Source: Cyanophyceae cyanobacterium (GTDB lineage: Bacteria > Cyanobacteriota > Cyanobacteriia > Cyanobacteriales > JBHJGN01). Taken from it: a DNA stretch of 49,647 nucleotides. Positions 2 to 21,692 of the stretch are shown here, piece after piece. The stretch lies in NCBI GenBank assembly GCA_050331735.1, contig JBHJGN010000027.1, positions 1 to 49,647 on the forward strand, given 5' to 3'. A program made the position numbers and the translations under genes. Positions within the stretch are counted from its first letter, which is position 1. Every line of letters starts with the position of its first letter. The notes below the pieces were generated by a model, which worked only from the letters and a program-made list of their open reading frames with translations, was not told the DNA's origin and ran no database searches.

Positions 2-250
2 AAAGTACAGTCTCAAAATGCGGCGGCCAACCACTCCATCGCGGTTACCGATACGGACCTGCGCAACCAGCAAGTGCAGTTTGAAAACGATGGCTTCTAT
101 GACTTTGACAGTCAAGAGCAGCTTTCTATTCAAGATGCGGCTACCAGCAATGCCGGTGTTAATGGTTCTGCGGCCATCACCGACACTGACCTCGACAATC
201 AGCAGTTGCAAGTTGACTACGATTACTCTCAGCCTTTCTTAGCTTACTAA
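2..250 (+). CDS. 3' part of a small Gln/Asn/Asp-rich repeat protein, paralog-like to 328..759 (5' end outside window)
   Basis: Frame 2 is open from the window start to TAA 248-250: KVQSQNAAANHSIAVTDTDLRNQQVQ...SQEQLSIQDAATSNAGVNGSAAITDTDLDNQQLQVDYDYSQPFLAY. It has two imperfect repeats resembling those of the next gene. Absent from the ORF track because the start is missing. Confidence 0.75.
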   Translation, partial: KVQSQNAAANHSIAVTDTDLRNQQVQFENDGFYDFDSQEQLSIQDAATSNAGVNGSAAITDTDLDNQQLQVDYDYSQPFLAY

Positions 251-327
251 ACAAAAGTAATTGAAGGTTTTGCCGATTTCCTGACAACTTATAAAAAAAT
301 CGGCTTAAACTATTCAAGATTACAACA

Positions 328-759
328 ATGTTGCCAAAAACCTGCTCTTTCAGTTTTGTCACTGCTGTCGCCGTTATCTCTCCCTCTATTGTTTTTGCTC
401 AGCCTGTGCAGGTCAATTCACAAAGAGTTAATACTAGCACTCTAGCAGCGGGGGAAGGAGCCACTGCTGTTAATCAAATTCATCAATCTAGTTATCAAAG
501 CCAGTGGAATCACGGCTCAGCACCTCAATCTCAAATTTCAGTTCAACAGGTTGATACTAACACCACCGCAGTAGGCAACCACGCCACTGCGATTAGCAAT
601 ATTCATCAAGCTAGTCATCAAAGCCAGTGGGGCCAAGGCTCAGCACCGCATTCTCAATCAGTCCAACAAATTGATGCTAACACGGCTGCTGTTGGTGACT
701 GGAGTACGGCAATTAGCAATCTTGAACAACACAACGTTCAAATTCAGTTTGGCTTTTGA
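328..759 (+). CDS. Secreted small protein with three ~41-aa Q/N/S-rich repeats
   Basis: Sec-type signal peptide ending VFA|QP. Repeats of the form QxQxSxQxVxTxxxAxGxxATAxxxIxQxxxQxQ. DNA repeat tcaaagccagtgg...ggctcagcacc recurs at a 123-bp period. Confidence 0.85.
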   Translation: MLPKTCSFSFVTAVAVISPSIVFAQPVQVNSQRVNTSTLAAGEGATAVNQIHQSSYQSQWNHGSAPQSQISVQQVDTNTTAVGNHATAISNIHQASHQSQWGQGSAPHSQSVQQIDANTAAVGDWSTAISNLEQHNVQIQFGF

Positions 760-847
760 CAAATAAGCGTCAAGTCTCGTCGAGATTTGGCAGCCTTGCC
801 CGGATCTAGAGTCAAATTAGCCTCTCTCGTATAGAAGGAGTCAACCC

Positions 848-1192
848 ATGCTTATTAAAAAGTCGCTTCCATTACTGGTCATTCCCGCTCTACTTACGCT
901 CCCGGCTGGAATTGCTAGAGCCGATAATATTGATGTGCAAACTGGCGATCAGAAAGTCACAATCGACCGCAACAACGGAATCAGAATTGAATCCGGTTCC
1001 AGAGAAATTATTGTTCCTCAGCGATCGCCTCGGTCGTCTCATTTATCGTCTCGTTTACGGATTCTTGGTCTTCCTCAACTCAAAAAACCTTTACGGTGTC
1101 AGGGAAGAGAGAGCCACCAAGATACTCACACTCACCATTCTGGAGGAGTATCGCGTACGCAGAGTTCCATATCCACCAGAGTATGTCAATAG
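848..1192 (+). CDS. Small secreted hypothetical protein with C-terminal Cys pair
   Basis: AAGGAG RBS; signal peptide ending ARA|DN; C-terminal C...VCQ segment. Confidence 0.8.
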   Translation: MLIKKSLPLLVIPALLTLPAGIARADNIDVQTGDQKVTIDRNNGIRIESGSREIIVPQRSPRSSHLSSRLRILGLPQLKKPLRCQGRESHQDTHTHHSGGVSRTQSSISTRVCQ

Positions 1193-1229
1193 CTAACGCT
1201 TCGTAGAAATTTTAGAATTGGAGATCGCA

Positions 1230-1667
1230 ATGAAGTTTAATATACTATCGCTCGGATTATTTTCTCTTTCCAGCCTACTTCCTCTAGCCCCTGTCGTCAC
1301 TTCTCAAGCCAGTGCAGCCTGTGTAATGGTTGACGTTGCTACTCAAGTAGCGATTCGTGGCTCTCACACTCCTGCCGCCCAAAGTAATGATGTCGGGATG
1401 AATCACGACGAAAATTGCTTCGGCAATGTCACAGTAGACACAGGTACTCAGGTTTCTAGCAGTCCCGGAGACGTGGAACAAAGCCGCAACAGTAGTCATT
1501 ACGTTGGTGGCGGCAGCGAAGATCATTATGGGCTGAGGGGACCAGTCATTGGCGTTCCTGTAGAAACCCAAGTAGATGTTTATAGCCCAGCTCACGATCC
1601 GAGCATAGTCAACTCCTATGGAGAATTTGAAGATACTGGTTACGCAGAAGACAGTTTCGCTTATTGA
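1230..1667 (+). CDS. Small secreted beta-rich hypothetical protein with Cys pair
   Basis: GGAG RBS before ATG 1230; signal peptide ending ASA|AC; alternating V/T/Q strand pattern; two Cys. Confidence 0.8.
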   Translation: MKFNILSLGLFSLSSLLPLAPVVTSQASAACVMVDVATQVAIRGSHTPAAQSNDVGMNHDENCFGNVTVDTGTQVSSSPGDVEQSRNSSHYVGGGSEDHYGLRGPVIGVPVETQVDVYSPAHDPSIVNSYGEFEDTGYAEDSFAY

Positions 1668-2000: not shown

Positions 2001-2846
2001 TTATGAAGCAAAAAAATTTCTTCGCAGCCCAGATAAAAGACCAACTCCGACAAAGCCTAATAAAGCCCAGATGCTGGACTGTTCTGGAACCTTCACGCAG
2101 GCATCCTCGGCTTGAGGAGCCTGAGCGCAAGTCTTATTCATTGTGCTTGCTGTTAATCTCAGTTGGGTTGGTTGCTCAAAACGCTGTTGGAAAGTCCCGG
2201 AAAAGGTAATCGAAACAGACTCTTGATTGGCTTGCTCTGTAATCAGCGGAGTGGGAGAGTTCGTAAAGACGATATTGCCATTGCGGTCAACGTCTAGAAA
2301 ATCATCATCTTCATTTAGCAGATTCGTTTCTAGATTGCCCAAAAGTTGGAAGTTGCCAATGTTTTGAGCGAATGTATCTACCAAAGAAAAAGACAGATTG
2401 CTGATTGTCGTTACGCTGTCTGTCAGAGAATCGCTGACGGTATTGCTAAGCGTTAGGTTTGCCAGGAAATCAAAGGAAAATACCTGATCGGCCTCAATAA
2501 AAAATTCGCCAACTGATTGTCCTGAAGCCTGAGACAAGCCAAAATAGCGATCGCCTTCTCCAGCTACTTGATTTTGAAACCTGATTTGGGTAAAAGTCTG
2601 CGCTTCATCGACGACAAAATCTACCCCACCGCTTACTCGGGGGTTAACCTGCGAAATCTCCGATCCGGAAACCGCTATTTGAGTAATATTGTCTGTCGTC
2701 TCATTAGAGAGGGGAGACTGATTGAAGCTAAGACCTAAAAAGGTTTGGGAAAGGGAGAGGGTAGCCGCTTGAGCGGGAAAGGCGAAGATGGCTGCGCTGC
2801 TCCAAAGAGGCGTTGCCAGTAACAGTAGCTGTGAAGATCGATTCAT
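2001..2846 (-). CDS. PEP-CTERM exosortase-sorted surface protein
   Basis: Signal peptide ending AQA|AT. C-terminus VPEQSS + hydrophobic helix + RR. ATG 2846 preferred over TTG 2864. Confidence 0.85.
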   Translation of the reverse strand: MNRSSQLLLLATPLWSSAAIFAFPAQAATLSLSQTFLGLSFNQSPLSNETTDNITQIAVSGSEISQVNPRVSGGVDFVVDEAQTFTQIRFQNQVAGEGDRYFGLSQASGQSVGEFFIEADQVFSFDFLANLTLSNTVSDSLTDSVTTISNLSFSLVDTFAQNIGNFQLLGNLETNLLNEDDDFLDVDRNGNIVFTNSPTPLITEQANQESVSITFSGTFQQRFEQPTQLRLTASTMNKTCAQAPQAEDACVKVPEQSSIWALLGFVGVGLLSGLRRNFFAS

Positions 2847-2919
2847 AAAACTATTCTCTTGCAAGACTAGATGTGATTAGAAAAGACAAGGAGCGGAAGT
2901 TGGGAAAGTGGTTGCTGAG

Positions 2920-4074
2920 TCAGAACCGAAGAATTTCGCGATCATAATTGGCTGGGGTCGGTTCTACTTCCCAGACCAACCCCTCGCCAGGTGCGAGGGC
3001 TACTTCCAGGCCAAGCTGATCGACGGCTGTAGTCGCAGTCACTTCATTGCCGGGGAAAGGCTCTAATGCTTCTGAGAGCAGCCTGAGCTTAAATCCTGCC
3101 GGAATCCGTCCTCCCGGCGCTAAGCTGCGGAGTTCGATGCGCCAGGCCGAGGAATCTAAATTACTCAGCGGAAAAATGCGGAGCTGATAGGATTGATTGG
3201 CGATCGCAAGCTGCCGAACCAGGGCCGGGATGAGCTGCGAGGCTGCTCCTCTCGCAGAGGCGAGGCTAGGCTGAAAGTCTACCCGCTGCCACCCGCTCTG
3301 CTGCGCTAGCCTCGAAACGCCTGTTTGCAACCATTGCAGGACAGAGTACTGTTCTGGCAGTCCCCGTCGTCTGTCGGCTAATTGCTGTCTCCAGCCGCCA
3401 TGCTTGAGTAACGCGCCCCAGGTCGTAAAGGGAACGGCGAGACGAGGCACCAAAACGGCAGGATCGCCTAAGCGCTGCAACAGGTTATTGGCCTGCGTTG
3501 CTGAGAGCGAGGGCAGTGGGGTGAGGGCCGCTCGCGTCGGTTCGTTTGGGCACAGTCTTCTGGCGACCCAAAGGGCGTTGATATCTGCAATCAGCTCGTC
3601 GCCGTCAAGGACGTAGGTGCGAGACCCAGCATCATACTCTGCCGCTTTGAGCTGCTGATGAGTGCTATATCCCCACACCCGGAGCAACTGTTCGTCTGGG
3701 TTAACCTGCACCGCCAGATAGTAGTCGGCGGCCCACTCGGGCAGATCGATCCACTCTTGAGGAACTCGCAATTCGTCTAAGTCCACTGCTTCTGTCGGCA
3801 TGAGGACGAGGCGAGCACCGAGAGCGGCGATCGCTACTCCATTGACCACTTCCCAGAAACTAGCCAAAGCTGAGGGATGGGGCCACGGTCGCGCTTGGGA
3901 GTCCTGTTCTTCTCTGAACCAGGGCAACAAGGTTTGCAGGCAGAGCTGGTTTAGATAAGCATTCCAGCGACTTGCCTCCGTCGCTCCTGACTGGTTCTGC
4001 CAGGCAGAGGACTGAACATCGGCAGAAATGGCTAAAGTTAGCTCGGTTGGGTTAGATAAACTTGAATCTATCAT
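2920..4074 (-). CDS. DUF1822 family protein
   Basis: Characteristic motifs AYLNQLCL, FWEVVNG, ELRVPQEWIDLPEWAADYYLAVQV, VWGY; C-terminal beta domain (LPxGFKLRLL-type). Confidence 0.85.
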   Translation of the reverse strand: MIDSSLSNPTELTLAISADVQSSAWQNQSGATEASRWNAYLNQLCLQTLLPWFREEQDSQARPWPHPSALASFWEVVNGVAIAALGARLVLMPTEAVDLDELRVPQEWIDLPEWAADYYLAVQVNPDEQLLRVWGYSTHQQLKAAEYDAGSRTYVLDGDELIADINALWVARRLCPNEPTRAALTPLPSLSATQANNLLQRLGDPAVLVPRLAVPFTTWGALLKHGGWRQQLADRRRGLPEQYSVLQWLQTGVSRLAQQSGWQRVDFQPSLASARGAASQLIPALVRQLAIANQSYQLRIFPLSNLDSSAWRIELRSLAPGGRIPAGFKLRLLSEALEPFPGNEVTATTAVDQLGLEVALAPGEGLVWEVEPTPANYDREILRF

Positions 4075-4087
4075 CAGAGATACTCCG

Positions 4088-5281
4088 TTAAGTTGGCAGC
4101 TCGTGACGGCGATAGTAGCCTACTAGCCATTCATCTAATACTGCGCTGATAGATTTCAGTACGTCTGATGTCAGAGAAACATGCAGGGCTTCTTGGCTCC
4201 ACTGAGCGAGAGTTTGCAGCAGCGACTCTCTGATTCGGGTTAAGCGGCGGGAAACAGTATATTGTTTGGTCTTTAGTCGCTGAGCAATTTCTTTTTGGGG
4301 GAGTTGCTCGCTGTAGTACAGCTCCAAAAGCTGTTGGTTGTCTGGCGCTAACTCTGCGAGCGCTGCCGTCAAGACTTGATGAACTTGAGCTTGCTGAGTT
4401 GTCCGTTGCTGAACTTCTTCCTCGATGATTAAGTTGGTCAACAAGGAGTCATGTCCCTCTCTCACTAAATCGTCACCGACCTCGCCAGTTTGCCCCGGCT
4501 TCGGCGCGTTGATTGAGGTGACGGTGGGATACAGATAGGCCCGAGCCGCTCGCGCACAGGTCAGCAGCCACTGCTCTATTTGCTCAGAACTCCCTTCCGG
4601 TCCGGGGGGCTGAAGCTGGCTATAGCGCTCGCGGTTGTAGAGCGCGGCGATCGCCTGCCAGTTTTTTTTGTCTGGTTTTGGCAGCTTACGAGTGGTATTC
4701 GCTGGAGAGGGAACGTAGAGAGTCTTTAAGCAGTTCCAGGCGAGGATATAGTGACTCCTTGCGGCAGACAGTCCTGCCTGAGTCAGCGCCTCTGCGAGAC
4801 GCTTTTGGCTAATTTTTCGCAGCAATCCCCAGTCCGAGCAGATATCGACCTCTTGCCGCTGTCGGAGAAATACGCGCACTTGGTTGTGAAAAACCATGCT
4901 GGCGTAGTTTTTGAGCCTGAAACCTTGGTTGGGGTCAAAACCTTTAAGAATTTTATCTGTACTGGCGATCGCCGCTTGAAACCGATCCGAGAGAGAATAC
5001 TGGGTGCTCGCAAAGTCAGCCGCCGTTTTTTGAGCCGCCCAATAGCAGACCTCCTGGAGGTAGGCGCTCAGATGCCCTTTCACTAATGGCGTCGGCTGAG
5101 TTTGCCAGAGTTTGTACCAGTAGAGCGTCCAAAAATTTTCAGTGGTTTTTTCAGAGGCTCCTTGAGAGAGGCGAGTCATACTCTGGCGCAGACGGACATC
5201 GGTTGCCCAACGACTGAAGCGATCGCAGTCAAATTGCACAAAAGTTGAAAAAATTTCGACAATTCCTTGGCGAGGAAGCAT
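4088..5281 (-). CDS. Atypical cyanobacterial sigma-70-family / HetZ-like transcription factor
   Basis: N-terminal PRQxIVEIFSTF..W, HLSAYLQEVCYW and a region-2-like segment (FDPNQGFRLKNYA). C-terminal region-4 HTH LLELYYSEQLPQKEIAQRLKTKQYTVSRRL. Sits 13 bp upstream of DUF1822. Confidence 0.8.
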   Translation of the reverse strand: MLPRQGIVEIFSTFVQFDCDRFSRWATDVRLRQSMTRLSQGASEKTTENFWTLYWYKLWQTQPTPLVKGHLSAYLQEVCYWAAQKTAADFASTQYSLSDRFQAAIASTDKILKGFDPNQGFRLKNYASMVFHNQVRVFLRQRQEVDICSDWGLLRKISQKRLAEALTQAGLSAARSHYILAWNCLKTLYVPSPANTTRKLPKPDKKNWQAIAALYNRERYSQLQPPGPEGSSEQIEQWLLTCARAARAYLYPTVTSINAPKPGQTGEVGDDLVREGHDSLLTNLIIEEEVQQRTTQQAQVHQVLTAALAELAPDNQQLLELYYSEQLPQKEIAQRLKTKQYTVSRRLTRIRESLLQTLAQWSQEALHVSLTSDVLKSISAVLDEWLVGYYRRHELPT

Positions 5282-5449
5282 AAAAATGTCAACTACGTAC
5301 TATAAAACTATGTAAACCATCGTTAAGTAGGTGTTTAACTAATCTTCATTACAAAGAATAGTATACTATGGCACACTTTTTAAGTAGATAGATTTTAAAG
5401 TTTGGCAAAAACAATCATGAAAACAATGGAATAATAAGCGATTTTGGCT

Positions 5450-6379
5450 ATGTTTAAACACCTAAAGCTGAGACAAAAGTTGACTTTTTTACTACTGCTG
5501 ATTCTTGTCGGTGGTTTATCAATTATTGGTGTCGCTTTGCATGCTGTTTTACAGCGCAATGCTGAAAATGAAATTGCTTCAAAGGGACTCATCCTGATGG
5601 AAACGATGAACTCAGTGCGGGACTATACGAGTAATCAAGTCCAGCCAGAGTTAGTTCACAGATTAGAAGAAAGATTCTTGCCCGAAACGATTCCTGCCTA
5701 TTCAGCCCGAGAAGTTTTTGAATCGCTGCGGCAAAATTCCGAGTATCGGGACTTCTTCTATAAAGAAGCCACTCTCAATCCCTCTAATCTGCGCGATAAA
5801 GCGGATAGTTTTGAGACTACCCTCGTTGAAGATTTCCGAGATAATGAAAACATCAAAGAGCTGCGGGGATTTCGTTCCGCTCCGAGCGGAGAGCTGTTTT
5901 ACATTGCCCGCCCGCTCAAAGTTACTGAGGCGAGCTGTCTTGAATGTCACAGTACCCCAAGTGCTGCCCCACGCAGTGTGGTTGAGCGTTACGGAACCAC
6001 CAATGGCTACGGATGGAAGCTTAATGAAATCGTTGCGGCTCAAATGATTTCCGTTCCGGCTGATACAGTGATTACCCAAGCTCGACGCTCGTTTTTGCTA
6101 ATCATGGGCATTATTTCGGCGGTTTTCGTCACGATCATTTTGTTACTGAATCTGTTTCTCAATCGAACCGTGACTCGTCCTCTCAAGCGCATGGCACGAG
6201 TAGCCGATCAGGTAAGCATTGGTAATATGGCCATCGAGTTTGAGCAGTTGACCAATGATGAGGTGGGGGATCTGGCCAAAGCTTTTCAGCGCATGAAAGT
6301 GAGTTTAGAAATGGCCATGAAAAGACTCAATCGCTCCCACGGGAGTAGAGCAAAGCGGGAATCCAGGTCAACTGATTGA
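5450..6379 (+). CDS. DUF3365 (Tll0287-like) c-type heme sensor with TM-sensor-TM-HAMP and no output domain
   Basis: Two TM helices, YKEATLNPSNLRDKAD motif, CLECH heme-c motif and HAMP (RPLKRMA...DEVGDLAKAFQRM), then stop. Confidence 0.85.
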   Translation: MFKHLKLRQKLTFLLLLILVGGLSIIGVALHAVLQRNAENEIASKGLILMETMNSVRDYTSNQVQPELVHRLEERFLPETIPAYSAREVFESLRQNSEYRDFFYKEATLNPSNLRDKADSFETTLVEDFRDNENIKELRGFRSAPSGELFYIARPLKVTEASCLECHSTPSAAPRSVVERYGTTNGYGWKLNEIVAAQMISVPADTVITQARRSFLLIMGIISAVFVTIILLLNLFLNRTVTRPLKRMARVADQVSIGNMAIEFEQLTNDEVGDLAKAFQRMKVSLEMAMKRLNRSHGSRAKRESRSTD

Positions 6380-6397: not shown

Positions 6398-7723
6398 TTA
6401 AAAAGAATTGAAAAGACGATGCTTGAATTCGTGAGCTGTCTGTACGTCGGGGATTTCTGCTGCTAGAGCTTCGGCTAGCTGTTGCGGAGACCCCGGAGAA
6501 TATTCCTCAATAACCTCTTCAACAATAAAACTGGCGATCGGTCCAATGCAGGCTGCCAGCTCTCTTTGGCAGCGCTCTACAAATTGAGGGTTTAGGGAAC
6601 TTGGCGGTGGTAGTTCAACTTCTGCTAGCTCCTCTTCCCGTTCAAAATTTTCTGAAGGAGATGAACTGATGACGGTTGCTTCTGCTACGGGTCTAGGCTG
6701 GTCTCTTTCCTCTAGGAACTGAGGTTCAGCCGGTAATGGAGGAGTCGGATGACTGATCATCGTTTCCCCAGGCTGTTCTAACCGCTGCAAATCGGCTATA
6801 ACATCTTGGGCTAGCTGATAGCGATGTCTCGGCTGGTCGGCTAGCAGCTTATCGAGGATTTGGGCAAAGACCGCGCTGACCTCACAGTAGGAACGCCAGC
6901 GCCATTCTAAAGAATACTGATTGACCAGGAGAGTCGGATTTCTGCCCGTCAGCAAAACGGCGGCAGTCACGCCCAGCGCATACAGATCGCAACTGGGCGA
7001 ACAGTATCCCATGCTAATTTGCTCGCGGGGCGCATAGCCAATTTTACCGACAAAAGACATCTTGCCCACAAAGGAGCCTCCCTCTGGCGGCTCGTCCCCA
7101 TTAGAGTCTGGTTGCTCGGAGTCAATCACCTGCTTACCGACCCCAAAATCAATCAGCATCGGCAAGTTGTGGTCGTTGGGCAGCATCACATTGTCGGGAG
7201 AAATATCGCGGTGAATAATGCCGCGTTCGTGGATGTATGCCAGAATCGGCAGCAAACTTTTGAGCCACTGAATAATTTCAGCTTCAGTGAATGTTTGACC
7301 GTGCTGCTGACGTTCCTGAAGCAGCGTCGAATACGTTTTCCCATTAACGTACTCCTGCACTAAAAACAAGCGCTCTGGCCCTTCAAAGCAAGCTAAGAAT
7401 TTGGGAATTTGCGGATGTTCGATTTGATGCAGAATTTTGGCTTCTCTTTTGAATAAATCGCGAGATTTATGCAGCTCGTATTCCCCAGTGCCGCTAGGGG
7501 CAAATTCCTTGAGAACGCAAGGTTCGTTAAAACGATGAGTGTCAAGCGTCAAGTACGTCCGACCCAACCCGCCCTGACCCAGAACTTTCTGGACCAAATA
7601 GCGATTATTAATTAAAGTCCCGAATGGGATTTCGTCGCTTCTTACTATCGGTTGTGACATCTCATCAAAGCTCCTGACTGAGCAATCAGCAAATTCTGAT
7701 TTGTCTTTGGTATAATTTTCCAA
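6398..7723 (-). CDS. Cytoplasmic Ser/Thr protein kinase with Pro/Glu linker and C-terminal helical domain
   Basis: GQGGLG, VLKE, HRDISPDN, DFG and GYAPREQ motifs; no TM. The start may be ATG 7660. Confidence 0.92.
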   Translation of the reverse strand: MENYTKDKSEFADCSVRSFDEMSQPIVRSDEIPFGTLINNRYLVQKVLGQGGLGRTYLTLDTHRFNEPCVLKEFAPSGTGEYELHKSRDLFKREAKILHQIEHPQIPKFLACFEGPERLFLVQEYVNGKTYSTLLQERQQHGQTFTEAEIIQWLKSLLPILAYIHERGIIHRDISPDNVMLPNDHNLPMLIDFGVGKQVIDSEQPDSNGDEPPEGGSFVGKMSFVGKIGYAPREQISMGYCSPSCDLYALGVTAAVLLTGRNPTLLVNQYSLEWRWRSYCEVSAVFAQILDKLLADQPRHRYQLAQDVIADLQRLEQPGETMISHPTPPLPAEPQFLEERDQPRPVAEATVISSSPSENFEREEELAEVELPPPSSLNPQFVERCQRELAACIGPIASFIVEEVIEEYSPGSPQQLAEALAAEIPDVQTAHEFKHRLFNSF

Positions 7724-11777: not shown

Positions 11778-12188
11778 ATGTTTTGGACTAACACAACGCC
11801 CCGGATTGTTCTCGGCATTCTGCTCGGCTCTGTAACCGTCAGTCTGGCCCCACACCCCGCTGCGGCACTCACGCCCCTCGACTTGATTCAAATTCCTCTG
11901 AATGCCGTTAGCGGTGGCACTCCCGAACCGCTGCCCAATCGCAATATCGATGTGTTTAAAGAGAACCTCAACGGCAATCAGCTCAATCTGTGCATAGCGC
12001 CAGCGCCCTGTAGCACACCGAGTGCGCCGCGTCCCTCGGCTCCCAGACCTACTGGGGTTGCTCCAGTCCGTGGTCCGATTGCTCCCCCGAGGGCTGTCAC
12101 CCCAACACCACCCCGGACTGTCCCCCAGACGGCTGCTCCTCCGTCATCGGGTCCGGTCCTGACTGTCCCGCCCATCAAGTTGTTTTAA
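11778..12188 (+). CDS. Small secreted Pro-rich hypothetical protein
   Basis: GAGG RBS; signal peptide ending AAA|LT; Cys pair; P/T/A-rich tail. Divergent from the ABC exporter. Confidence 0.75.
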   Translation: MFWTNTTPRIVLGILLGSVTVSLAPHPAAALTPLDLIQIPLNAVSGGTPEPLPNRNIDVFKENLNGNQLNLCIAPAPCSTPSAPRPSAPRPTGVAPVRGPIAPPRAVTPTPPRTVPQTAAPPSSGPVLTVPPIKLF

Positions 12189-13783: not shown

Positions 13784-14590
13784 ATGAGAAAGACCGTCCG
13801 GCGAACGATCGCCCGCCTTTTAATTGCTATCTTCGGAACCATCCTATTAATTGGACTCATCCTTGCTATTGAAGCGGTTTTCGGCAGCCAGCAGAGCTGT
13901 CCGCCTCCAGAAGCCTGGTTACTTTGTCGCATCCGAGACTCTGTTCTGTTGAGCGTTGTCGAGGGCTTCAGTATTTTTGTTGCCTTAATTCTCTTTTTTC
14001 TAGAAGCTCCAGAACGAGCCAAGCAAGCCCATTACGAAGCTTGGAAAGTGATCGATACGGCTCATGGAGTCGAGACAAGCTATGCGCGTTTTCAAGCTCT
14101 ACAAGATCTCAACGAAGATCGGGTTAGCCTAAAAAGACTAGATGCCTCTGGTGCTGATCTGAAGGGAATTAATCTCAAGGCAGCGGATCTGAGCTACGCC
14201 AAGCTAGTGGGGGCGGATCTGAGTCATGCCAACCTTAGCAATGCGGATCTCAGACACGCTCATCTTGTTAGAGCCAACCTCAGCAACGCAGATTTAAGCA
14301 ATGCTCGCCTTGTTGATGTCAACTTCAGTCATGCCAAGCTCATCGACGCTGATCTAGTTAGTGCTGAGATGATTGGCGCTAATCTTAGCGATGCGCATCT
14401 TGTCGGGACTAATTTAAGCAAAGCTTATCTCGGCGATGCCGACTTGAGCAATGCTCGCCTTGACGATGCCAATCTGAGTCAAACCAAACTGTTTGGAGCT
14501 AGAAACTTAACTCCAGAACAAGTAAAAGCCGCTAAAAGCTGGCAAAAAGCCATTTATGACGAAGGTTTTCGACAGAAGCTTGGTTTGTAA
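13784..14590 (+). CDS. Membrane-anchored pentapeptide-repeat protein
   Basis: Two TM segments, HYEAWKVID..ARFQALQDL motif, A(D/N)Lxx repeats. Confidence 0.9.
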   Translation: MRKTVRRTIARLLIAIFGTILLIGLILAIEAVFGSQQSCPPPEAWLLCRIRDSVLLSVVEGFSIFVALILFFLEAPERAKQAHYEAWKVIDTAHGVETSYARFQALQDLNEDRVSLKRLDASGADLKGINLKAADLSYAKLVGADLSHANLSNADLRHAHLVRANLSNADLSNARLVDVNFSHAKLIDADLVSAEMIGANLSDAHLVGTNLSKAYLGDADLSNARLDDANLSQTKLFGARNLTPEQVKAAKSWQKAIYDEGFRQKLGL

Positions 14591-14636
14591 ACAATTTTTT
14601 GAATTCAAAATTACATTTAAACATGAGGTATTTCTG

Positions 14637-15239
14637 ATGCAATTTTCCCAAGGGAAGCGACTGATAAAATTGACAGCGCTGGGGGCGGCAGTCACAGCAG
14701 CAGTCCTATCTACTGCGACAGCATCCTTCTCTCTATCCGCTTTGGCAAACTTGATGCCCTCTCTTCAGGCTCTGACTCCGGCTGAAATTGGTTATGCTGT
14801 AATTGAAGGCACTTCAGATCCAGAGCTGTCAGGAGAAGTGTTACTGTACGAAACCAGCGCCGGTCTGCGGGTTATCGGTAATTTGATTAATACCCCTCCG
14901 GGAGTTCACGGGTTTCATATTCATGAGTTTGGGAGCTGTGCAGACCAGGGAAAAGCTGCTGGGGGTCACTACAACCCCGATGGAGTTGAGCATGGCGATT
15001 TGCTCGCTGACGGCTTTGAGCATGCCCATGCCGGGGATCTAGGCAATGTGGAGGTCTCTGAAGACGGAACGGCTGTTTGGGAGCAACTATTTCCTGGACT
15101 CACCCTCCGCAGCGGCAACTATCCTGTCGCTGGTCGCTCATTTATCCTCCATGCCGCTCCAGACGATTTGAGCCAGCCAACAGGAAACGCCGGCGCGCGA
15201 ATCGGGTGCGGTACGATTAGAGCGACCGTTTCGCCGTAG
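14637..15239 (+). CDS. sodC: Cu/Zn superoxide dismutase, exported
   Basis: HGFHIH, GGHYNP, HAGDLGN, ILHA and GNAGARIGCG motifs; GAGG RBS and signal peptide from ATG 14637. Confidence 0.9.
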   Translation: MQFSQGKRLIKLTALGAAVTAAVLSTATASFSLSALANLMPSLQALTPAEIGYAVIEGTSDPELSGEVLLYETSAGLRVIGNLINTPPGVHGFHIHEFGSCADQGKAAGGHYNPDGVEHGDLLADGFEHAHAGDLGNVEVSEDGTAVWEQLFPGLTLRSGNYPVAGRSFILHAAPDDLSQPTGNAGARIGCGTIRATVSP

Positions 15240-15281: not shown

Positions 15282-18200
15282 ATGTGTCCAGTTGCTCTCA
15301 GTCCGGCGCCCAGTTCTCTCGAGGAGGGAATTGCCAAACTATGGTTGTTGTTAGTCGGTGTCAATCACTATCAAGATGCCAGCCTACCATCGTTGCAGTA
15401 TTCTGCGTTAGATTGTCAAGGCTTAGGCGAGGCCATTACTGAGGCTACTCAGGTTTTTCCGCAAAAATCCGTCCTGATTCATCACGATTTTGCGGCTCAC
15501 CCCCCGAAGCTAGCAACTGTTAAAAGCAGCTTAGAGCAGATTGCAGCAGCGGCTCAACCCCAGGATACGGTACTGTTTTACTTTTCGGGACACGGCATAT
15601 TGGAGCCGGACAGTCACCAGGCGGTTCTGTGCTTAGCGGATACCTCTGAGCAGGAGCTATTAAAAACGGGGCTACCACTCCACGAACTTCTCCAATGCTT
15701 AGGAGAGTGCGCCGCTCGCCAGCAGTTAGTGTGGCTCGATGCTTGTCATAGCGGTGGCATGACGCTGCGGGGAGCTCGGGGAGAGAGAACGAGGTTTGAC
15801 CCCACATCTCAACTGGTAGCCGTTCTGCGGCAGCGAGCCGCTCAAAGTCAAGGGTTTTATGCTCTCCTCTCTTGCGATCACCATCAGCAGTCTTGGGAGT
15901 TTCCAGAATTAGGTCACGGGGTCTTTACCTATTACCTGATGCGAGGCTTGCGAGGCGAGGCAGCCGATGCTCAAGGCGTTATTGAGGCAGATGCCCTATA
16001 TCAGTACGTTTACCATCAAACTCTGCGGTATATCGATACAACAAATCAGCAAATCCGCCTTATCAATCAGCAGAAAAGCAGTCGCGGGGAAAGCCAGCTT
16101 CAGTCTGAGTATCCTCTGCAAACCCCCAAACGGATTGTCGAAGGCGTTGGTCAAGTCATTCTCGGGGTGCGATCGCCCACTGATAATTTTCAGTCTCCGC
16201 GACGGGCCCTCGTTGTCGAGGGGCTGCCGAGCCAGCATACTCTCGCCTTGAGTAAAACCCTGCGCAGAGCGGGCCGCTTTGCACTGGAATACTGGCCTCG
16301 CCCCGGTCGCGAGTGGTCAGAGGTTCGAGAAGCGATTGTAGACTGTTTAGGAGCGCACCGTGATTCCTCTGCTCAGTGTCAAACTACCAAGACGATGACT
16401 GGGGAGACAACCACGGTGTTGCTCTACCTCCGAGGACACATTGAAGAGACAGCCACTGGAGAAGCCTGGCTCATTTGTGGAGACGGCACGAGATTAAGCC
16501 GTTCCTGGCTTAGACAAGCACTCCGCCGCTCGAGTATCTCACAGCAAATTGTGATTTTAGACTGTCCAGAAGGTCGGGCCCTCGATGACTGGGTAGAAGA
16601 CCTCCGGCTGAACTCCGAACAAGGTCAGTGTTTAATGGCTGGAGCTACCCCGGTAGCCGCCCCGGAACAATTTGCTCAGGCCCTATTACAGTCATTACAA
16701 GCAGCAGAGCCGCAAGCGGGACTTCCCGTTGCTGCCTGGATTGCTCAACTACAGATAGAGCTGGCAGGAACCAACCTCTCTCCGCACATTTGGCTCTCCG
16801 GAACCCAAGGAGTCATTGAAGTTTTGCCTAGCAGCACGGCTAAAGGCGAGGTTGGGGAGATAGTCGATCTCGGAATTTGCCCCTACATGGGTTTGCGAGC
16901 TTTTAGCGAAGAAGATACGGCATACTTTTACGGGCGCAAAGCATTGACTCAACGGCTAATTGCCGAATTTCACCATGCTGCTTTGGCGGTGGTGGGTGCT
17001 TCTGGGAGCGGCAAGTCTTCAGTCGTGCAGGCAGGTCTGATCGCTCAGTTACGCCAGGGGAAGCAGCTACCGGGTAGCGAACAGTGGTGGATTCGGGCTG
17101 TTCGTCCCGGCAGTAAACCAATAGCCGCCTTGAGTCGTCGCTTAGTCGATCCAGGGACAGACAAAGAGCAAGCCTATCAACAGCTACAAATCGAGGGCTT
17201 GCTCTACCAAGGAGTCGAAGGATTTGTCCGCTGGCTGCGCGTCCGGCCAGAGCCAATGGTTGTTCTGGTCGTGGACCAGTTTGAAGAGCTGTTTACTCTC
17301 AGTGCTCCCCCAGACCGCCAGCGCTTCCTAGAGCTGGTGCTCGGGGCAGTCACCCACGCCGGGGATCGGTTCAAGCTGGTGCTGTGTTTACGAGCTGATT
17401 TCGTGGCCCCCTGTTTAGAAGTGCCTGAGTTGGCCGCAATATTGCAGCACTCCAGCGTCCTAGTTCCCCCCTATTTAATCAAGGAGGATTATCGTCAAGC
17501 AATTATTAAACCAGCCGAACAGGTTGGTCTTCAGGTGGAGCCGGGGTTAGTTGAAGTCTTACTCTCAGAGCTGAATCATTCTGCTGGAGACTTACCGTTG
17601 CTTCAGTTTATCCTAGAGCAGCTCTGGGAACGTCGGCAGTCCGGGCAGCTCACGCTGTCTGCTTATCAGCAGCTTGGGGGACTCAAAGGAGCTTTAGAGC
17701 GACAGGCCCAGGCAGTCTACGAGAGCTTAGACTCAGAGGCCCAAGCCTGTGCCCGCTGGATTTTTCTGGCTTTAACGCACCTTGGAGAGGGGACAGAAGA
17801 TACTCGTCGCCGGGTTCCCAAGTCCGAATTGGCCGTCACTAAATATCCGGCTCCGCTCGTCGAAAGAACTTTGCAAAACCTCACTGCCGCAAAACTCGTG
17901 ATTGTGAACTGGGAGGAGAAAGCTGTCGGCCAAAGCCGCAGTGTCGAGTCTGAGTCGGAACCGCCACTAGAGTTGTCGCCGCAGGTAACGGTGGAGGTTG
18001 TTCACGAAATCCTGATTCGCCACTGGTCAACGCTGCGCTGGTGGTTAGAAGAGAATCGGGCGCGTCTGCGCCTCCAGCGACAGCTAGAGCAGTCTGCTCG
18101 GCTCTGGAGTCAAAGCGGTCAACAAGCCGATTTTCTCCTGCGCGGAGTCCGTCTTGCTGAGGCAGAGGAGCTGTATATTAAATATACAGACGAGCTATCT

Positions 18201-20489
18201 GGGGCGGTCCAGCAATTTATTGAAGCCGGTTTAGAAGCTCAACAGCAGGAGCAGCGTCAAGCTCAGCAACGTTTGCGCCGCGCTCAAGCTACCGCCGTGC
18301 TGATCGGTTTTTTAGGACTAACCTCCCTTGGCCTTGGTGGTTTGGCCTATCGCCAAAAAGTGAGCGCCCAAATCGAGAAAATTGAGGCGCTTAATGCTTC
18401 CTCTGAGGCGCTGCTGTCCGGCCAGCAGCTTGAATCCCTGACCGCTAGCGTCAAAGCAGGACAGCAGCTCAACTCGATGAATGGATGGGCCCAAACACTG
18501 CTGGGTCGGAGCTGGACTCAAACGCAACTGAGAACAGCCAGTACGCTCCAGCAGGCCATTGATAGGACTCAAGAACTAAATCGTCTCGAGCGACATCACC
18601 AATCGGTTAATGCCGTCAGCTTCAGCCCAGACAGTCAGCTACTCGCCTCGGCCAGCGACGATCGTACAGTTCGTCTCTGGCGACGGGACGGGACTTTACT
18701 GGCCACCCTCACTCACGGTGAGACTGATGCTTCTGCTGTGGATGCTCGCGTGACCGGCGTTGCCTTTAGCCCCGATGGTCGCCTCCTCGCCGCTGCCAGT
18801 ACCGACCGAACGATCGCCCTTTGGCAGCTCGATCGTCAAGACCCGACAAAAGTCGTTCTTCTACAAACCTTCACTGGACACCGGGATTGGGTAACGAGCA
18901 TCCATTTCAGCCCCGACGCTCGGCTGCTAGCGACAACCAGTCGAGACGAAACCGTTAAGCTATGGAGTTTGAAGGGAACGCTCATCGATACCCTGACTGG
19001 GCATGAGGGCTGGGTGAATAGCGCAAGCTTCAGTGCAGACGGACAGACGTTAGCCTCCGCAGGAGAGGACAGCACCATCAAACTTTGGCAGCTCGATTCT
19101 GAGAAGCCGGCGAGTTTATTGAAAACCCTTGAGGGGCATCGCGATCGCATCACCAGCGTGGCCTTTAGCCCTGACCAGCATCTCGTCTCTGCCAGTGGCG
19201 ATGGCACGGTCAAAGTTTGGAATCTGGCGGCGGGAACGGCTCAGGTGTTCGTCGGAGATGAGGAAGGTCGCCCCCTCCGCGCCCAGGTGAACAGCGTCAG
19301 GTTTAGCCCAGATGGTCAGATAGTCGTTTCTGCCAGTGCCGACGGTCGCCTCAGTTGGTGGAATCGCGATGGGATTTTAATGAATACTCTAGCCGGACAT
19401 GGTGCGGAGATTCTGGATGTTGATTTTAGTCCAGACAGTACGATGCTCGCTTCCGCTAGTGCGGATAAAACAGTAAAACTCTGGGATGCGGCAATCCCTC
19501 TACCCAAGCAAGATAGCGGCACTAATAGCGTTCAGTTTAGCCCCGCCAATTCAGCCTTCGCCTCCGGAGACTGGCACGGGACCGTTAAGCTCTGGCATCC
19601 AAACGATGCGGGCACTTTAAAGTCTCTCAAAGGTCATCAGTCGGTCATCTCGGAGATCGCCTTTAGTCCGAAGGGCGATGTTTTGGCTTCTGCTAGCTGG
19701 GATCGCAGTATCAAACTCTGGCGAGTCGAAGATGGCACTCTCCTCACCACGCTCAGCGGACATGGCGATGGAGTGACTAGCGTTGCTCTGGCTGCGGCCA
19801 ATCCTCTAGATGGTTCCCTGCTGGCTTCCGGCAGTGATGATCGCACCATCAAGCTTTGGCAGGCTGTTGATGGTCAAGCCGAACTGTTACAGACTCTGGA
19901 AGGTCATGACGATGGCGTGGCTAGCGTCGCCTTAAGTCCTGACGGTCGCCTGGTGGCTTCTGGTAGCTACGATCGCACGATCAAGCTGTGGCGATTGGAT
20001 GGCACTCTTCTAAAAACGCTCAATCAACATGGACTGGCGATCGCTGACGTTAAATTTAGCCCAGATGGAGAAACCCTCGTTTCTGCTAGCTGGGACAACA
20101 CCCTCCGCATCTGGCAGATAGCTCAACACCAAAACAGTGTCCGAGTGCGGCTACGGCAGACGCTTTCAGGACACCAAGGCGGCGTTACCAGCATCGATTT
20201 TAGTCCCAGCGGGCAATTTTTAGTATCGAGTAGTGCAGACACCACCATCAAACTCTGGGATTTACAGACGGGTTTGCTGCTCAAGACCTTACGAGGACAT
20301 CGCGCCCCCGTTAAGAGCGTTAGTTTTAGTTCAGATGGTCAAGCCTTAGTCAGTGGAGATGAACACCAAGGAGTCAAGCTGTGGAATTTAGAGCTAGACG
20401 CTCTGTTACAGCGTGGCTGCGAACGGCTGACTTACTATCTCCGCACCAATCCAAATCTAGCAGAGCAAGAGCGCCAGTTATGTCAATAA
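15282..20489 (+). CDS. Caspase-family (C14) protease + degenerate caspase-like domain + STAND (nSTAND1-type) NTPase + TM + WD40 repeats
   Basis: FSGHG and DACHSG catalytic dyad; CPYMGLRAF..FYGR; Walker A GASGSGKSS; LVVDQFEELF; LPLLQF; hydrophobic helix near aa 1010-1025; many GH...FSPDG...SAS.D.T.KLW repeats. Confidence 0.92.
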   Translation: MCPVALSPAPSSLEEGIAKLWLLLVGVNHYQDASLPSLQYSALDCQGLGEAITEATQVFPQKSVLIHHDFAAHPPKLATVKSSLEQIAAAAQPQDTVLFYFSGHGILEPDSHQAVLCLADTSEQELLKTGLPLHELLQCLGECAARQQLVWLDACHSGGMTLRGARGERTRFDPTSQLVAVLRQRAAQSQGFYALLSCDHHQQSWEFPELGHGVFTYYLMRGLRGEAADAQGVIEADALYQYVYHQTLRYIDTTNQQIRLINQQKSSRGESQLQSEYPLQTPKRIVEGVGQVILGVRSPTDNFQSPRRALVVEGLPSQHTLALSKTLRRAGRFALEYWPRPGREWSEVREAIVDCLGAHRDSSAQCQTTKTMTGETTTVLLYLRGHIEETATGEAWLICGDGTRLSRSWLRQALRRSSISQQIVILDCPEGRALDDWVEDLRLNSEQGQCLMAGATPVAAPEQFAQALLQSLQAAEPQAGLPVAAWIAQLQIELAGTNLSPHIWLSGTQGVIEVLPSSTAKGEVGEIVDLGICPYMGLRAFSEEDTAYFYGRKALTQRLIAEFHHAALAVVGASGSGKSSVVQAGLIAQLRQGKQLPGSEQWWIRAVRPGSKPIAALSRRLVDPGTDKEQAYQQLQIEGLLYQGVEGFVRWLRVRPEPMVVLVVDQFEELFTLSAPPDRQRFLELVLGAVTHAGDRFKLVLCLRADFVAPCLEVPELAAILQHSSVLVPPYLIKEDYRQAIIKPAEQVGLQVEPGLVEVLLSELNHSAGDLPLLQFILEQLWERRQSGQLTLSAYQQLGGLKGALERQAQAVYESLDSEAQACARWIFLALTHLGEGTEDTRRRVPKSELAVTKYPAPLVERTLQNLTAAKLVIVNWEEKAVGQSRSVESESEPPLELSPQVTVEVVHEILIRHWSTLRWWLEENRARLRLQRQLEQSARLWSQSGQQADFLLRGVRLAEAEELYIKYTDELSGAVQQFIEAGLEAQQQEQRQAQQRLRRAQATAVLIGFLGLTSLGLGGLAYRQKVSAQIEKIEALNASSEALLSGQQLESLTASVKAGQQLNSMNGWAQTLLGRSWTQTQLRTASTLQQAIDRTQELNRLERHHQSVNAVSFSPDSQLLASASDDRTVRLWRRDGTLLATLTHGETDASAVDARVTGVAFSPDGRLLAAASTDRTIALWQLDRQDPTKVVLLQTFTGHRDWVTSIHFSPDARLLATTSRDETVKLWSLKGTLIDTLTGHEGWVNSASFSADGQTLASAGEDSTIKLWQLDSEKPASLLKTLEGHRDRITSVAFSPDQHLVSASGDGTVKVWNLAAGTAQVFVGDEEGRPLRAQVNSVRFSPDGQIVVSASADGRLSWWNRDGILMNTLAGHGAEILDVDFSPDSTMLASASADKTVKLWDAAIPLPKQDSGTNSVQFSPANSAFASGDWHGTVKLWHPNDAGTLKSLKGHQSVISEIAFSPKGDVLASASWDRSIKLWRVEDGTLLTTLSGHGDGVTSVALAAANPLDGSLLASGSDDRTIKLWQAVDGQAELLQTLEGHDDGVASVALSPDGRLVASGSYDRTIKLWRLDGTLLKTLNQHGLAIADVKFSPDGETLVSASWDNTLRIWQIAQHQNSVRVRLRQTLSGHQGGVTSIDFSPSGQFLVSSSADTTIKLWDLQTGLLLKTLRGHRAPVKSVSFSSDGQALVSGDEHQGVKLWNLELDALLQRGCERLTYYLRTNPNLAEQERQLCQ

Positions 20490-20553
20490 AGAGCTGAACA
20501 ACTCTTGTTCATCCAGTTGTTGATGATAGTTTGATATCAATCGCGAGCGTTTA

Positions 20554-20663
20554 ATACCAAATCCGGTTTAAATACCCCACTTAAAAATTAGGTAAGGCAG
20601 GAGGCAGACGGCAGAAGGGTTTGCAAAGGAAGGAAACAGGGGTTTGAGATGCGGATTTGGTAT
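20554..20663. mobile_element. MITE-like element with 12-bp terminal inverted repeats
   Basis: ATACCAAATCCG ... CGGATTTGGTAT; non-coding interior with GGCAG(A/G) short repeats. Confidence 0.55.
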
Positions 20664-20690
20664 AAGTCACCATGCACTCAGGGTGGAAAA

Positions 20691-20733
20691 CGTTTAGCTT
20701 GCTAAACGCAGCACCCGGAACTTCTTCCGGGTG
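20691..20733. terminator. Tandem hairpins just after the FecR-gene stop
   Basis: CGTTTAGC-tt-GCTAAACG and CACCCGGAA-cttc-TTCCGGGTG between convergent genes. Confidence 0.5.
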
Positions 20734-20738
20734 AACGT

Positions 20739-21692
20739 TTAGCGAGTATGCTCTATGCTCAAGTCCGGGTTACTCTGACAATAGTTACCGAGCCACAATA
20801 ATCCCGTCAAGGAGCGAAACGGAGTGACAAAAATATCGCTTTCTGGTAAACGGAGAATAATTTCCTCGGCTGGAACAGTTGCAGGCCACAGCCATTGCAG
20901 TAACGGAGATGCCTGAATCGCGCTCAAATTCAGACCACAAAACCCGCTCAGCCACGCGACTTGATTGCTTAAAGGAGCCAAGGCTTCATCCCGAACGGCA
21001 TTAATAGTGGCCTGCACTTCAGGGGATTCTTGAGCGACCAAATTCTCTTGTCCAGTCCCTAGCCCAGCGGCCAGTTCAATACTGTCGTAAAACATCGGCA
21101 GGATGAAGTATTCTACCAGTCCGACGATGCCGTTAGCAATCGAGACAAATTGACCCGCCCTGAGTTCAACGACAACTTCCCCTGCTTGATTAGTGACCGT
21201 CACCGGACCCATCGGACTATTCGTTAACACGCCCACTAGTGAGGCATTGCGACTCGCATCATGTTGAATAAACAGGGCTGTTCCCTGAGAAACGATGGTG
21301 GCTTGGGGAGTCGTAATGGTACTGGTTCCGATTCCCGGACGAATCATGACCAGCGCAGCACCGCTGACCAGTTCAAAGCGACGTTTCCCGGGGGGAAAGC
21401 GGAAAACGCTTCCTTCTCCAGTTCGCAGCAGTGTCCCTTCATTGAACAGTAATTCTGCCCGCGAACGAGCAGCCGTTCGGAGGGCATCCCCAGGAACCAT
21501 CGCATCACCAACGGCGGCGGCATTCCAAACTCCTTGGTTTTGTCGTTCTAACTCCACTTGATTTTCCTTTTTATAAATCTCGGCCCGAGTCAGCACCGAT
21601 TGAGCAACAGCGGGGGACAACCAGAAAGTCAATAAGATTCCGGTTGCTAATCCGTGAGATAAACCATTCTTTAAGCAGGTGAGCTGGTTCAT
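20739..21692 (-). CDS. FecR-domain secreted protein
   Basis: Signal peptide ending AVA|QS; GDALRTAARSRAELLFNEGTLLR.GEGSVF and ITTPQATIVSQGT match the FecR beta-domain pattern. Confidence 0.8.
   Translation of the reverse strand: MNQLTCLKNGLSHGLATGILLTFWLSPAVAQSVLTRAEIYKKENQVELERQNQGVWNAAAVGDAMVPGDALRTAARSRAELLFNEGTLLRTGEGSVFRFPPGKRRFELVSGAALVMIRPGIGTSTITTPQATIVSQGTALFIQHDASRNASLVGVLTNSPMGPVTVTNQAGEVVVELRAGQFVSIANGIVGLVEYFILPMFYDSIELAAGLGTGQENLVAQESPEVQATINAVRDEALAPLSNQVAWLSGFCGLNLSAIQASPLLQWLWPATVPAEEIILRLPESDIFVTPFRSLTGLLWLGNYCQSNPDLSIEHTR

Follow-up and report, generated by a model that had tools for sequence, protein, structure and literature searches.

A putative composite of three separately conserved signalling cassettes in a cyanobacterial genome

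Three sets of bacterial signalling genes, each with a described relative, lie side by side in one locus of Cyanophyceae cyanobacterium (contig JBHJGN010000027.1, assembly GCA_050331735.1). Computed gene neighbourhoods with caspase or CHAT proteins and their sensor parts include an "ECF sigma factor" gene as well as a DUF1822 gene (Kaur, Iyer, Burroughs and Aravind, eLife 2021, PMC8195603). In Pseudomonas azotoformans, a heme-binding receptor of the CHH type works with a docked Ser/Thr kinase (Deshpande et al., bioRxiv 10.64898/2026.05.25.727664). The FHA-ABC exporter Rv1747 is regulated by the kinase PknF (PMC3138270, PMC3908365). The corresponding genes of the cyanobacterial locus are a sigma factor, a DUF1822 protein and a caspase sensor protease (cassette M1), a CHH receptor, a Ser/Thr kinase and a substrate-binding protein (cassette M2), and an FHA-ABC exporter (cassette M3). 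M1 is already published as a computed association and the receptor-kinase pair of M2 is found in the 2026 preprint, so the statement of a first-pass annotation that no named system has this composition does not hold for them. M3 has a well-studied mycobacterial analogue.

The window is the whole stretch of DNA that was analysed, 49,647 nucleotides. The locus is its 5' part and, together with a second contig (C45), amounts to about 27 kb. Genes were called from a listing of open reading frames (ORFs) and from Pfam and NCBIfam profile searches of the window proteins; positions 25175-49647 were covered by the motif scan alone. The first-pass annotation listed small secreted proteins, DUF1822, a heme-HAMP sensor, a kinase, an FHA-ABC exporter, a Pro-rich protein, a caspase-STAND-WD40 protein and a FecR protein, and nearly all of these are real by profiles or translations. 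With a probability of about one half, we read the region as a functionally coupled composite, in which three signalling cassettes, each conserved separately, have been fused in a lineage-specific manner and are surrounded by genes for secreted proteins. The complete gene set of the window turned up in no other locus in neighbourhood searches seeded from four of its genes.

The three cassettes and their described relatives

The sigma factor of M1 (4088..5281, minus strand, 397 residues) is a true, divergent member of the sigma70 family. It matches NCBIfam TIGR02937 with 100.7 bits (cut-off 42.9) over residues 73-357, and Pfam sees region 4 only. The top Foldseek matches of its AlphaFold2 (AF2) model (pLDDT 75) are sigma70-family chains exclusively, aligned over 300-365 columns. 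What had been called "sigma-like" is thereby borne out. The DUF1822 gene (2920..4074, minus strand, Pfam 369 bits) is separated from the sigma gene by 13 nt. A neighbourhood search seeded with DUF1822 gave 41 cyanobacterial loci. Three of these begin inside the DUF1822 gene, and the other 38, which all extend further upstream, invariably carry the sigma gene directly ahead of DUF1822.

The neighbours of this pair differ between loci and fall into types. Ten loci have CHAT-CHASE2, often together with DUF928, two-partner secretion (TPS) exoproteins, TPR-CHAT and RTX proteins. RTX genes adjoin the sigma gene in L006, L012, L022, L028, L112, L114 and L115 (fetched loci carry L numbers, genomes G numbers). 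The caspase protein of the window (15282..20489, plus strand, 1735 residues) joins a caspase domain to an nSTAND1 NTPase and WD40 repeats, and the dyad motifs SGHG and DACHSG and a P-loop are visible in its translation. Five loci (L003, L018, L020, L021 and L036) hold a protein with an N-terminal stretch of 520 residues that is 50-56% identical to it, and L002 and L024 hold full or near-full orthologs. A caspase or CHAT protein is found within 10 kb of the pair in 17 of the 23 loci that have at least 5 kb on both sides.

The same link is seen from the side of the caspase gene. A seed made of its N-terminus finds matches in 38 of 151 genomes of the order. Twelve of 20 fetched loci (20 kb each) with full-length caspase-STAND-WD40 orthologs contain the sigma gene, 1.5-10 kb off and with variable genes between. 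Among genomes G001-G040, 11 of 16 matches to the caspase N-terminus lie within 12 kb of a DUF1822 match (coordinates compared by eye). The orthologs are long and mostly single copy, and they retain 50-68% identity across families.

The neighbourhoods of Kaur et al. (2021), for which a route from proteolysis to transcription has been proposed, are known from prediction alone. They resemble the window in the constant pair of sigma factor and DUF1822 and in a caspase-superfamily protease with variable sensor parts (CHASE2, STAND, kinase). Unlike in these neighbourhoods, the protease gene of the window lies 10 kb from the pair, with the two other cassettes between. Its caspase domain matches NF047832, "caspase, EACC1-associated type" (150.7 bits, cut-off 140), and begins at residue 22, which would leave no room for a preceding EACC2-type domain; a conserved region of about residues 290-520 follows it. 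DUF1822 is called a TPR protein in that paper, whereas its AF2 model (pLDDT 79.8) predicts a mixed alpha/beta N-domain, then a beta-sandwich, and no TPR array. The top 9 VIA matches of the N-domain are all PD-(D/E)xK nucleases (DpnI, Hjc and I-Ssp6803I among them). Their Z of 5.0-6.8 is under the caution line of Z 8, and the nuclease-like fold predicted for DUF1822 is therefore kept as a hint. Foldseek gave no match for the DUF1822 model at E<=0.001, and the DUF1822 profile found no match among PDB sequences at E<=1.

Protease-gated release of a sigma factor is reported to have been shown for Csx29 (TPR-CHAT)/Csx30/sigma and for CalpL/CalpT/CalpS (PMC10028731, bioRxiv 10.1101/2024.05.08.593097). 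These systems resemble M1 in that a sensor-activated protease (caspase-like CHAT in type III-E) is encoded together with a sigma factor and a partner; in them the partner binds the sigma factor, and its cleavage starts a transcriptional response. The window differs from such CRISPR-linked sets in the absence of a CRISPR part, and the likeness would be one of logic only. No search of this analysis brought up a similarity of DUF1822 to Csx30 or CalpT, and the sigma factor scores 23.7 bits, below threshold, against the type III-E sigma model.

Another relative is the two-gene EACC1-caspase system (Kaur et al. 2020, PMC7159879), which is filed under conflict systems like the architectures of PMC8195603. 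Evans et al. report that EACC1-caspase pairs act in phage defence (bioRxiv 10.1101/2025.11.14.688446). The shared feature is an EACC1-associated type of caspase fused to STAND-type sensors, including nSTAND1. The window departs from these systems in its linked sigma/DUF1822 pair and in having a superoxide dismutase (SOD) gene 5' of the caspase gene. A small membrane gene of the EACC1 type was seen neither 5' of the caspase nor among the recurrent neighbour families scanned, a scan that did not include a search with an EACC1 model. One recurrent neighbour of caspase loci, a protein of 106 residues (b34), is an SMR transporter.

A distant variant of this gene arrangement is present in genome G030. 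At L163 (4568-13645, plus strand), genes for a 562-residue protein, a 159-residue protein, a small secreted protein of the family described below as sp3, a 137-residue protein, a 482-residue protein, a DUF1822 paralog and a CHAT-nSTAND1 protein follow one another. The 482-residue protein occupies the place of the sigma factor and has no match to any family.

In M2, the CHH receptor (5444..6379, plus strand) consists of a Tll0287-like Cache_heme domain (Pfam 148.5 bits) with the heme motif CLECH, a transmembrane segment and a HAMP domain (41.3 bits). The protein ends after HAMP, with no output domain. A search of the PDB recovered Tll0287 and HAMP chains. The Ser/Thr kinase gene (6398..7723, minus strand; Pfam, with HRD and DFG in the translation) adjoins it convergently, and the kinase is cytoplasmic, with no transmembrane segment, no PASTA domain and one C-terminal helical module of about 65 residues. 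The third member is a PhnD-like substrate-binding lipoprotein (8073..8939, minus strand; Pfam, with a lipobox-like LWVGC). A CHH seed finds matches in 55 of 151 genomes, and 20 loci were fetched. The binding protein lies within two genes of the CHH gene in 17 of these and is directly adjacent and divergent in 15; it had been described as an orphan and turns out to be a conserved neighbour. A kinase of the window type directly adjoins the CHH gene in nine of the 20. Binding protein, heme-HAMP receptor and kinase form a conserved trio.

The kinase of this trio can be replaced. In L132, L139 and L145, an adenylate/guanylate cyclase is found beside the CHH gene instead. The C-terminal module of the kinase is matched at two of these cyclase loci (L139 and L145), and a protein of 161 residues beside the CHH gene in L135 (8946-9431) is little more than this module. 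Because the tail occurs on the kinase, on cyclases and nearly alone, it appears to behave as a portable HAMP-docking module. It had no match among PDB sequences at E<=10.

In the Pseudomonas system, the kinase docks on HAMP through C-terminal helical bundles, and phosphorylation of HAMP rises when nitric oxide (NO) binds the heme (bioRxiv 10.64898/2026.05.25.727664). The receptor there likewise has a periplasmic heme Cache domain with CXXCH, a transmembrane segment and HAMP, and no output domain. The adjacent kinase is also cytoplasmic and PknB-like and lacks transmembrane segments and PASTA domains, and the C-terminal module of the window kinase may correspond to its helical bundles. There are also differences. 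The cyanobacterial sets add the PhnD-like binding protein, of which the available part of the preprint makes no mention; no PP2C phosphatase was seen in the cyanobacterial set; and in cyanobacteria the cyclase can take the place of the kinase. The ligand is NO in Pseudomonas.

The exporter of M3 (8952..11399, minus strand) has two stretches matching FHA, followed by ABC_tran and ABC2_membrane (Pfam), and Walker A and signature motifs are seen in the translation. Its stop codon lies 12 nt ahead of the start of the binding-protein gene on the same strand, and the kinase gene is found two genes downstream of it, also on this strand. This arrangement makes the kinase the obvious writer of the marks that the FHA domains would read. 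Orthologs of the exporter are found in 79 of 151 genomes, mostly in one copy. Among the 40 loci fetched, a Ser/Thr kinase directly adjoins the exporter gene in nine, and loci of this kind often have peptidoglycan peptidase-like or polysaccharide genes. The commonest other neighbours of the exporter (L076-L107) are genes for beta-lactamase-like or penicillin-binding proteins, VanY and S13 peptidases and, in one genus, Wzz, sugar transferase and Wzy. These neighbours hint that the substrate may be cell-envelope material. A need of the exporter for the binding protein was considered and rejected: the binding protein is beside none of the 40 FHA-ABC orthologs, as against 17 of 20 CHH genes.

Rv1747, also an ABC exporter with a membrane part of the ABC-2 type, resembles this exporter in carrying two FHA domains at its N-terminus, and in a kinase gene in the same transcription unit or next door. 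It belongs to a different phylum, and the kinase of the window would be of another type, docked to a receptor.

In the literature on DUF1822, Tll0287, DUF3365 and EACC1, apart from supplementary tables, which may list some of these, we found no mention of the binding protein as the regular third component of M2 in cyanobacteria, no cyclase variant with the kinase tail, no recurrent fusion of M1 with M2 or with FHA transporters, and no sigma-associated element placed at an exporter operon.

Linkage of the cassettes and a sigma-associated DNA element

In a few other genera, M1 is also joined to M2 or to an FHA transporter. M1 and M2 are found together in L036 (a Brunnivagina strain), in L147, in L018 and L021, and partly in L003; L147 is the single CHH locus among the 20 with the sigma pair, and a caspase protein is alongside too. 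M1 and the FHA-ABC exporter are found together in L001, L072 and L074, of which the last two belong to one genus. In Mastigocoleus (L018 14708-17941 and L021 15356-18719), the set of sigma factor, DUF1822, kinase and receptor is followed by two tandem MFS transporters with a C-terminal FHA domain. In the genome of the window, the sigma factor, the CHH receptor, the binding protein, the FHA-ABC exporter and the caspase N-terminus each exist as a single copy, which makes chance an unlikely cause of adjacencies that recur in different genera. Over the 151 genomes, caspase and CHH are mildly associated (20 genomes with both against 13.8 expected, p=0.02, with kinship ignored).

These fusions are recurrent but optional, and the cassettes do not form one fixed module. 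The single module proposed in the first-pass annotation survives in its blocks, namely the sigma/DUF1822 pair with its caspase link, the CHH trio, the kinase beside the exporter, the fusions and a DNA element in two intergenic regions; as one unit it does not, the exporter being mostly apart from the sigma factor and never beside CHH. The expected co-localisation in other genomes likewise holds for M1, for M2 and for kinase and exporter, and fails for most of the secreted proteins: none of the 41 sigma/DUF1822 loci contains a homolog of the repeat proteins, of the 287-residue protein with an anchor-like tail, of the Pro-rich protein or of the SOD. As to co-occurrence, the part that stands is the mild association of caspase and CHH; the exporter is present or absent irrespective of the other two cassettes.

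The DNA element may connect the cassettes in another way. TATGCA is found in 25 of 52 regions upstream of sigma orthologs, as part of a bipartite motif, TA(C/G)(G/A)N-N14-16-TTATGCA. A two-block position weight matrix (PWM) was built from sigma-upstream regions of other genomes only. In the window it gives one outstanding match, which at 23.3 is the highest-scoring of the genome and falls between the divergently oriented genes for the exporter and the Pro-rich protein (11702..11751, minus strand). This element reads CTTCA..TAATAGGTT-N15-TTTATGCA. In its 5.57-Mb genome, only two matches of the two-block PWM reach at least 20, this one and C45:5006 (site 5006-5044), which lies in the gap between the gene for a 905-residue protein and the tandem genes for small secreted proteins. 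The CTTCA extension, absent from the first model, is found at both of these sites.

For an extended PWM of 50 nt, 21 sites with a spacing of 15 nt, all from other genomes, served as the training set. The window site scores 33.6 with it versus 16.1 for the next real match, and the best score per shuffled genome is 10.3-17.1 (n=5). At a score of at least 17.5, there are 70 matches in 1.09 Mb of M1 loci versus 8 in 1.02 Mb of other loci. In 8 loci, TATGCA stands at a fixed distance of 21-27 nt ahead of the sigma start, which favours a forward reading of the element. Read forward, its targets would be the string of exporter, binding protein and kinase in the window and the gene for the 905-residue protein on C45. 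Read in reverse, they would be the string of Pro-rich, RTX, pentapeptide, SOD and caspase genes and the five tandem secreted genes. In Mastigocoleus, each of the MFS-FHA genes (L018, L021) has a copy of the element before it, oriented opposite to the gene.

Proposed circuit and alternative explanations

By analogy with their described relatives, the most likely mode of action is a release of the sigma factor gated by a protease for M1, that of the receptor-kinase pair of P. azotoformans for M2, and that of Rv1747 with PknF for M3. A mechanism can be drawn from these likenesses. The lipoprotein and the periplasmic heme-c Cache receptor would sense an envelope signal, and HAMP would keep hold of the kinase through the helical module at the kinase C-terminus, as happens in the Pseudomonas pair. 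Phospho-threonines made by the kinase would be read by the two FHA domains of the exporter and gate export, as with PknF and Rv1747; exporter and kinase would be encoded in one transcription unit. Independently, the caspase-nSTAND1-WD40 protein would sense a cytoplasmic cue and cleave DUF1822 or the sigma factor, freeing the latter in the manner of Craspase/Csx30/sigma and CalpL/CalpT/CalpS. The freed sigma factor would read a private element of about 45 bp at two divergent intergenic regions of the genome, one between the exporter operon and the Pro-rich-RTX-pentapeptide-SOD-caspase string, the other between the adhesin-like 905-residue protein and the five tandem small secreted proteins. The outcome would be transcription of the export machinery in coordination with exported proteins, with matrix, adhesion or antagonism as candidate roles.

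In its full three-tier form, this circuit has the heme/binding-protein receptor set the docked kinase, the phospho-marks gate the FHA-ABC exporter (FHA-MFS in Mastigocoleus), and the caspase-released sigma factor switch on the exporter operon and the flanking secreted genes. We consider it unlikely as a whole. If it were true, a single export programme of multicellular cyanobacteria would be the meeting point of eukaryote-like kinase signalling and a protease of the apoptosis type. Should the couplings hold, the locus would illustrate how transcription and export are fed by a caspase-type sensor together with a receptor-docked Ser/Thr kinase, and the Pseudomonas receptor-kinase mechanism would extend to cyanobacteria with a binding-protein partner added. 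If they are false, the region is to be annotated as three separate, already catalogued cassettes and not as a new system. To our knowledge, the three cassettes have no known physiological output in cyanobacteria, nor has the sigma/DUF1822/caspase set been studied in bench experiments. The locus offers handles for this: one unique DNA element, candidate target genes on either side of it, and a kinase and an FHA exporter in what appears to be one transcription unit.

Among the alternatives, a defence island is the one that survives best, and we hold it to be possible though less than likely. It would be a conflict or programmed-cell-death island in which the caspase-STAND-WD40 protein senses an invader and triggers the sigma factor; the secreted, RTX, adhesin-like and repeat proteins would be effectors, and the M2 trio and the exporter bystanders. 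The class of the caspase fits such a role, since it passes the EACC1-associated model and EACC1-caspase pairs are reported in phage defence. The same is true of nSTAND1 and WD40, which are typical sensor parts, and Kaur et al. (2020, 2021) class such architectures as conflict systems. The variable genes adjoining the sigma pair, and Uma2 and transposase-like genes close by, are also in keeping with it. However, the gene directly 5' of the caspase is the SOD gene and not one of the EACC1 type, and the long, conserved, mostly single-copy orthologs of the caspase protein are closer in character to a housekeeping regulator than to a defence gene that changes quickly. The best site of the DNA element is at the exporter operon, which argues that the exporter is no mere bystander.

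A chance juxtaposition is the next alternative, in which a variable region happens to hold cassettes and secreted genes as neighbours and the cassettes are coupled neither in regulation nor physically. Several observations weigh against coupling. Of 40 ortholog loci of the FHA-ABC exporter, 38 show no linkage to M1 and all 40 none to M2; of the 20 CHH loci, 19 show none to M1 and all 20 none to the exporter. Caspase and exporter co-occur in 19 of the 151 genomes versus 19.9 expected, and CHH and exporter in 29 versus 28.8. Concerning the mechanism, the window kinase would have one docking module versus two in the Pseudomonas kinase, and DUF1822 as a protease substrate or an anti-sigma factor is pure analogy. 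The element has its own difficulties. Shuffled genomes give 3-7 matches of at least 20 with the two-block PWM, so that this score alone is not rare, and about 16 of the 70 matches in M1 loci are antisense within the sigma coding sequence. The motif scan gives scores of at most 6.5 for the sigma operon of the window, its CHH gene and each small secreted gene; apart from the genes flanking the element, the FecR gene is the only one of the locus with a higher-scoring site. The other loci in which an FHA-ABC gene abuts the sigma gene have no strong element (best scores 5.2, 5.0 and 10.0 in L001, L072 and L074). As for direction, 14 of 31 intergenic sites fit both, 11 fit only away from TATGCA, 3 only the other and 3 are undetermined; no consistent small forward ORFs were found behind the 11 "reverse-only" copies.

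Of these points, the separateness of the cassettes, the independent profile of the exporter and the two-block scores of shuffled genomes agree with a juxtaposition by chance, as does a transposase-like gene on C45. Yet like fusions recur in several genera in spite of each part being single copy per genome, a gap of 12 nt separates the genes for exporter and binding protein, which share a strand, and the extended element is unique in the genome and located exactly at this locus. We regard chance as a doubtful explanation and favour the composite of cassettes fused lineage-specifically. The weakest alternative, a single dedicated surface fibre or matrix system with small repeat proteins as fibre subunits and all listed genes obligatory, draws on five tandem small secreted proteins (three of them Q/N-rich repeat proteins), on an exporter and a private sigma factor beside secreted genes, on the copy of the element before the tandem array and on the string of G030 with its sp3-family gene, and is improbable in view of a repeat family confined to 2 of 151 genomes, parts that are separable in most genomes, no match to curlin or any other fibre model, and an ABCG-type exporter which, having no outer-membrane partner, would be an unlikely route for proteins with Sec signals.

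Surrounding genes

The plus-strand string downstream of the element starts with the Pro-rich secreted protein (11778..12188), which is recognised from its translation and matches no Pfam or NCBIfam family. It is followed by an RTX calcium-binding repeat protein (12497..13738, Pfam HemolysinCabind 87.7 bits), a membrane pentapeptide-repeat protein (13784..14590, Pfam and translation) and the periplasmic Cu/Zn SOD (14556..15239, Pfam Sod_Cu 125 bits). In stating that no housekeeping genes lie in the region, the first-pass annotation overlooked these last three. The caspase gene ends the string. Convergent with it is a gene for a secreted or membrane protein with a FecR domain (20739..21749, minus strand, Pfam 31.8 bits); this pairing recurs in one of the 20 caspase loci (L116). 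A weak element-like site, 11.7, is found upstream of the FecR gene.

At the other end of the locus, four genes for small secreted proteins with signal peptides stand in tandem on the plus strand. The first is the 3' part of a Q/N-rich repeat protein (2..250), and the second encodes a protein of 143 residues from the same repeat family (328..759). The third protein, of 114 residues (848..1192), has no Pfam or NCBIfam match. The fourth (1218..1667), called sp3, belongs to a cyanobacterial family of about 130-150 residues with homologs in 27 of 151 genomes, one of them in the string of L163 described above. The start of the window is a contig end, and C45 (5837 bp; L152) joins it by an exact overlap of 21 nt and a continuous reading frame; the gene at 2..250 starts on C45, in frame with the last ORF there. 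The tandem array, counted as four from the window, gains a fifth member from C45 (5165-5623), a repeat protein that is a paralog of the one at 2..250.

Only 2 of 151 genomes, one of them the genome of the window, have members of the repeat family. The Atlas model of the 328..759 protein resembles beta-solenoid proteins, and its look-alikes are unnamed, apart from a SufBD-like resemblance (TM-score 0.56-0.60); both may serve as leads only. A curlin-like reading of the repeat proteins was tried and dropped, with no curlin or other fibre model matched in Pfam or NCBIfam.

The last gene of the sigma-DUF1822 string (2001..2864, minus strand) encodes a protein of 287 residues with a hydrophobic and basic C-terminal tail (VPEQ...RR). 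The label PEP-CTERM, given to it earlier, was not upheld: neither the whole protein nor its last 49 residues match TIGR02595 or Pfam at E<=10. Its sole CTERM match is MYXO-CTERM with 14.3 bits, below the cut-off of 20. From its sequence, the product is predicted to be a secreted protein with a C-terminal anchor-like tail.

The remainder of C45 holds the gene for the 905-residue protein (2108-4825, minus strand), which has choice-of-anchor-Q and FG-GAP parts, and transposase-like ORFs. One of these ORFs (946-2061) combines a Cas12f1-like TNB domain with a match to the beta-lactamase family. Just beyond the locus, at 21856-25174 of the window, an FG-GAP repeat protein is followed by a PhoX alkaline phosphatase. 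The FG-GAP protein has many paralogs in the genome; for example, it is 66% identical to the C-terminus of the 905-residue protein of C45.

Element-like sequences also occur outside intergenic regions. The sequence TACGTC-N15-ATATGCAG is found at 4150-4190 of the window (plus strand) and, in about 16 loci, in the 3' end of the sigma ortholog. It is antisense to the gene, whose sense strand encodes a conserved peptide there, LHISL..DVL. This class is probably a coding by-product of the peptide; an internal antisense promoter would be the other explanation. In the remainder of the window (25175-49647), the motif scan gives one middling site, at 46959 on the plus strand, with a score of 14.6.

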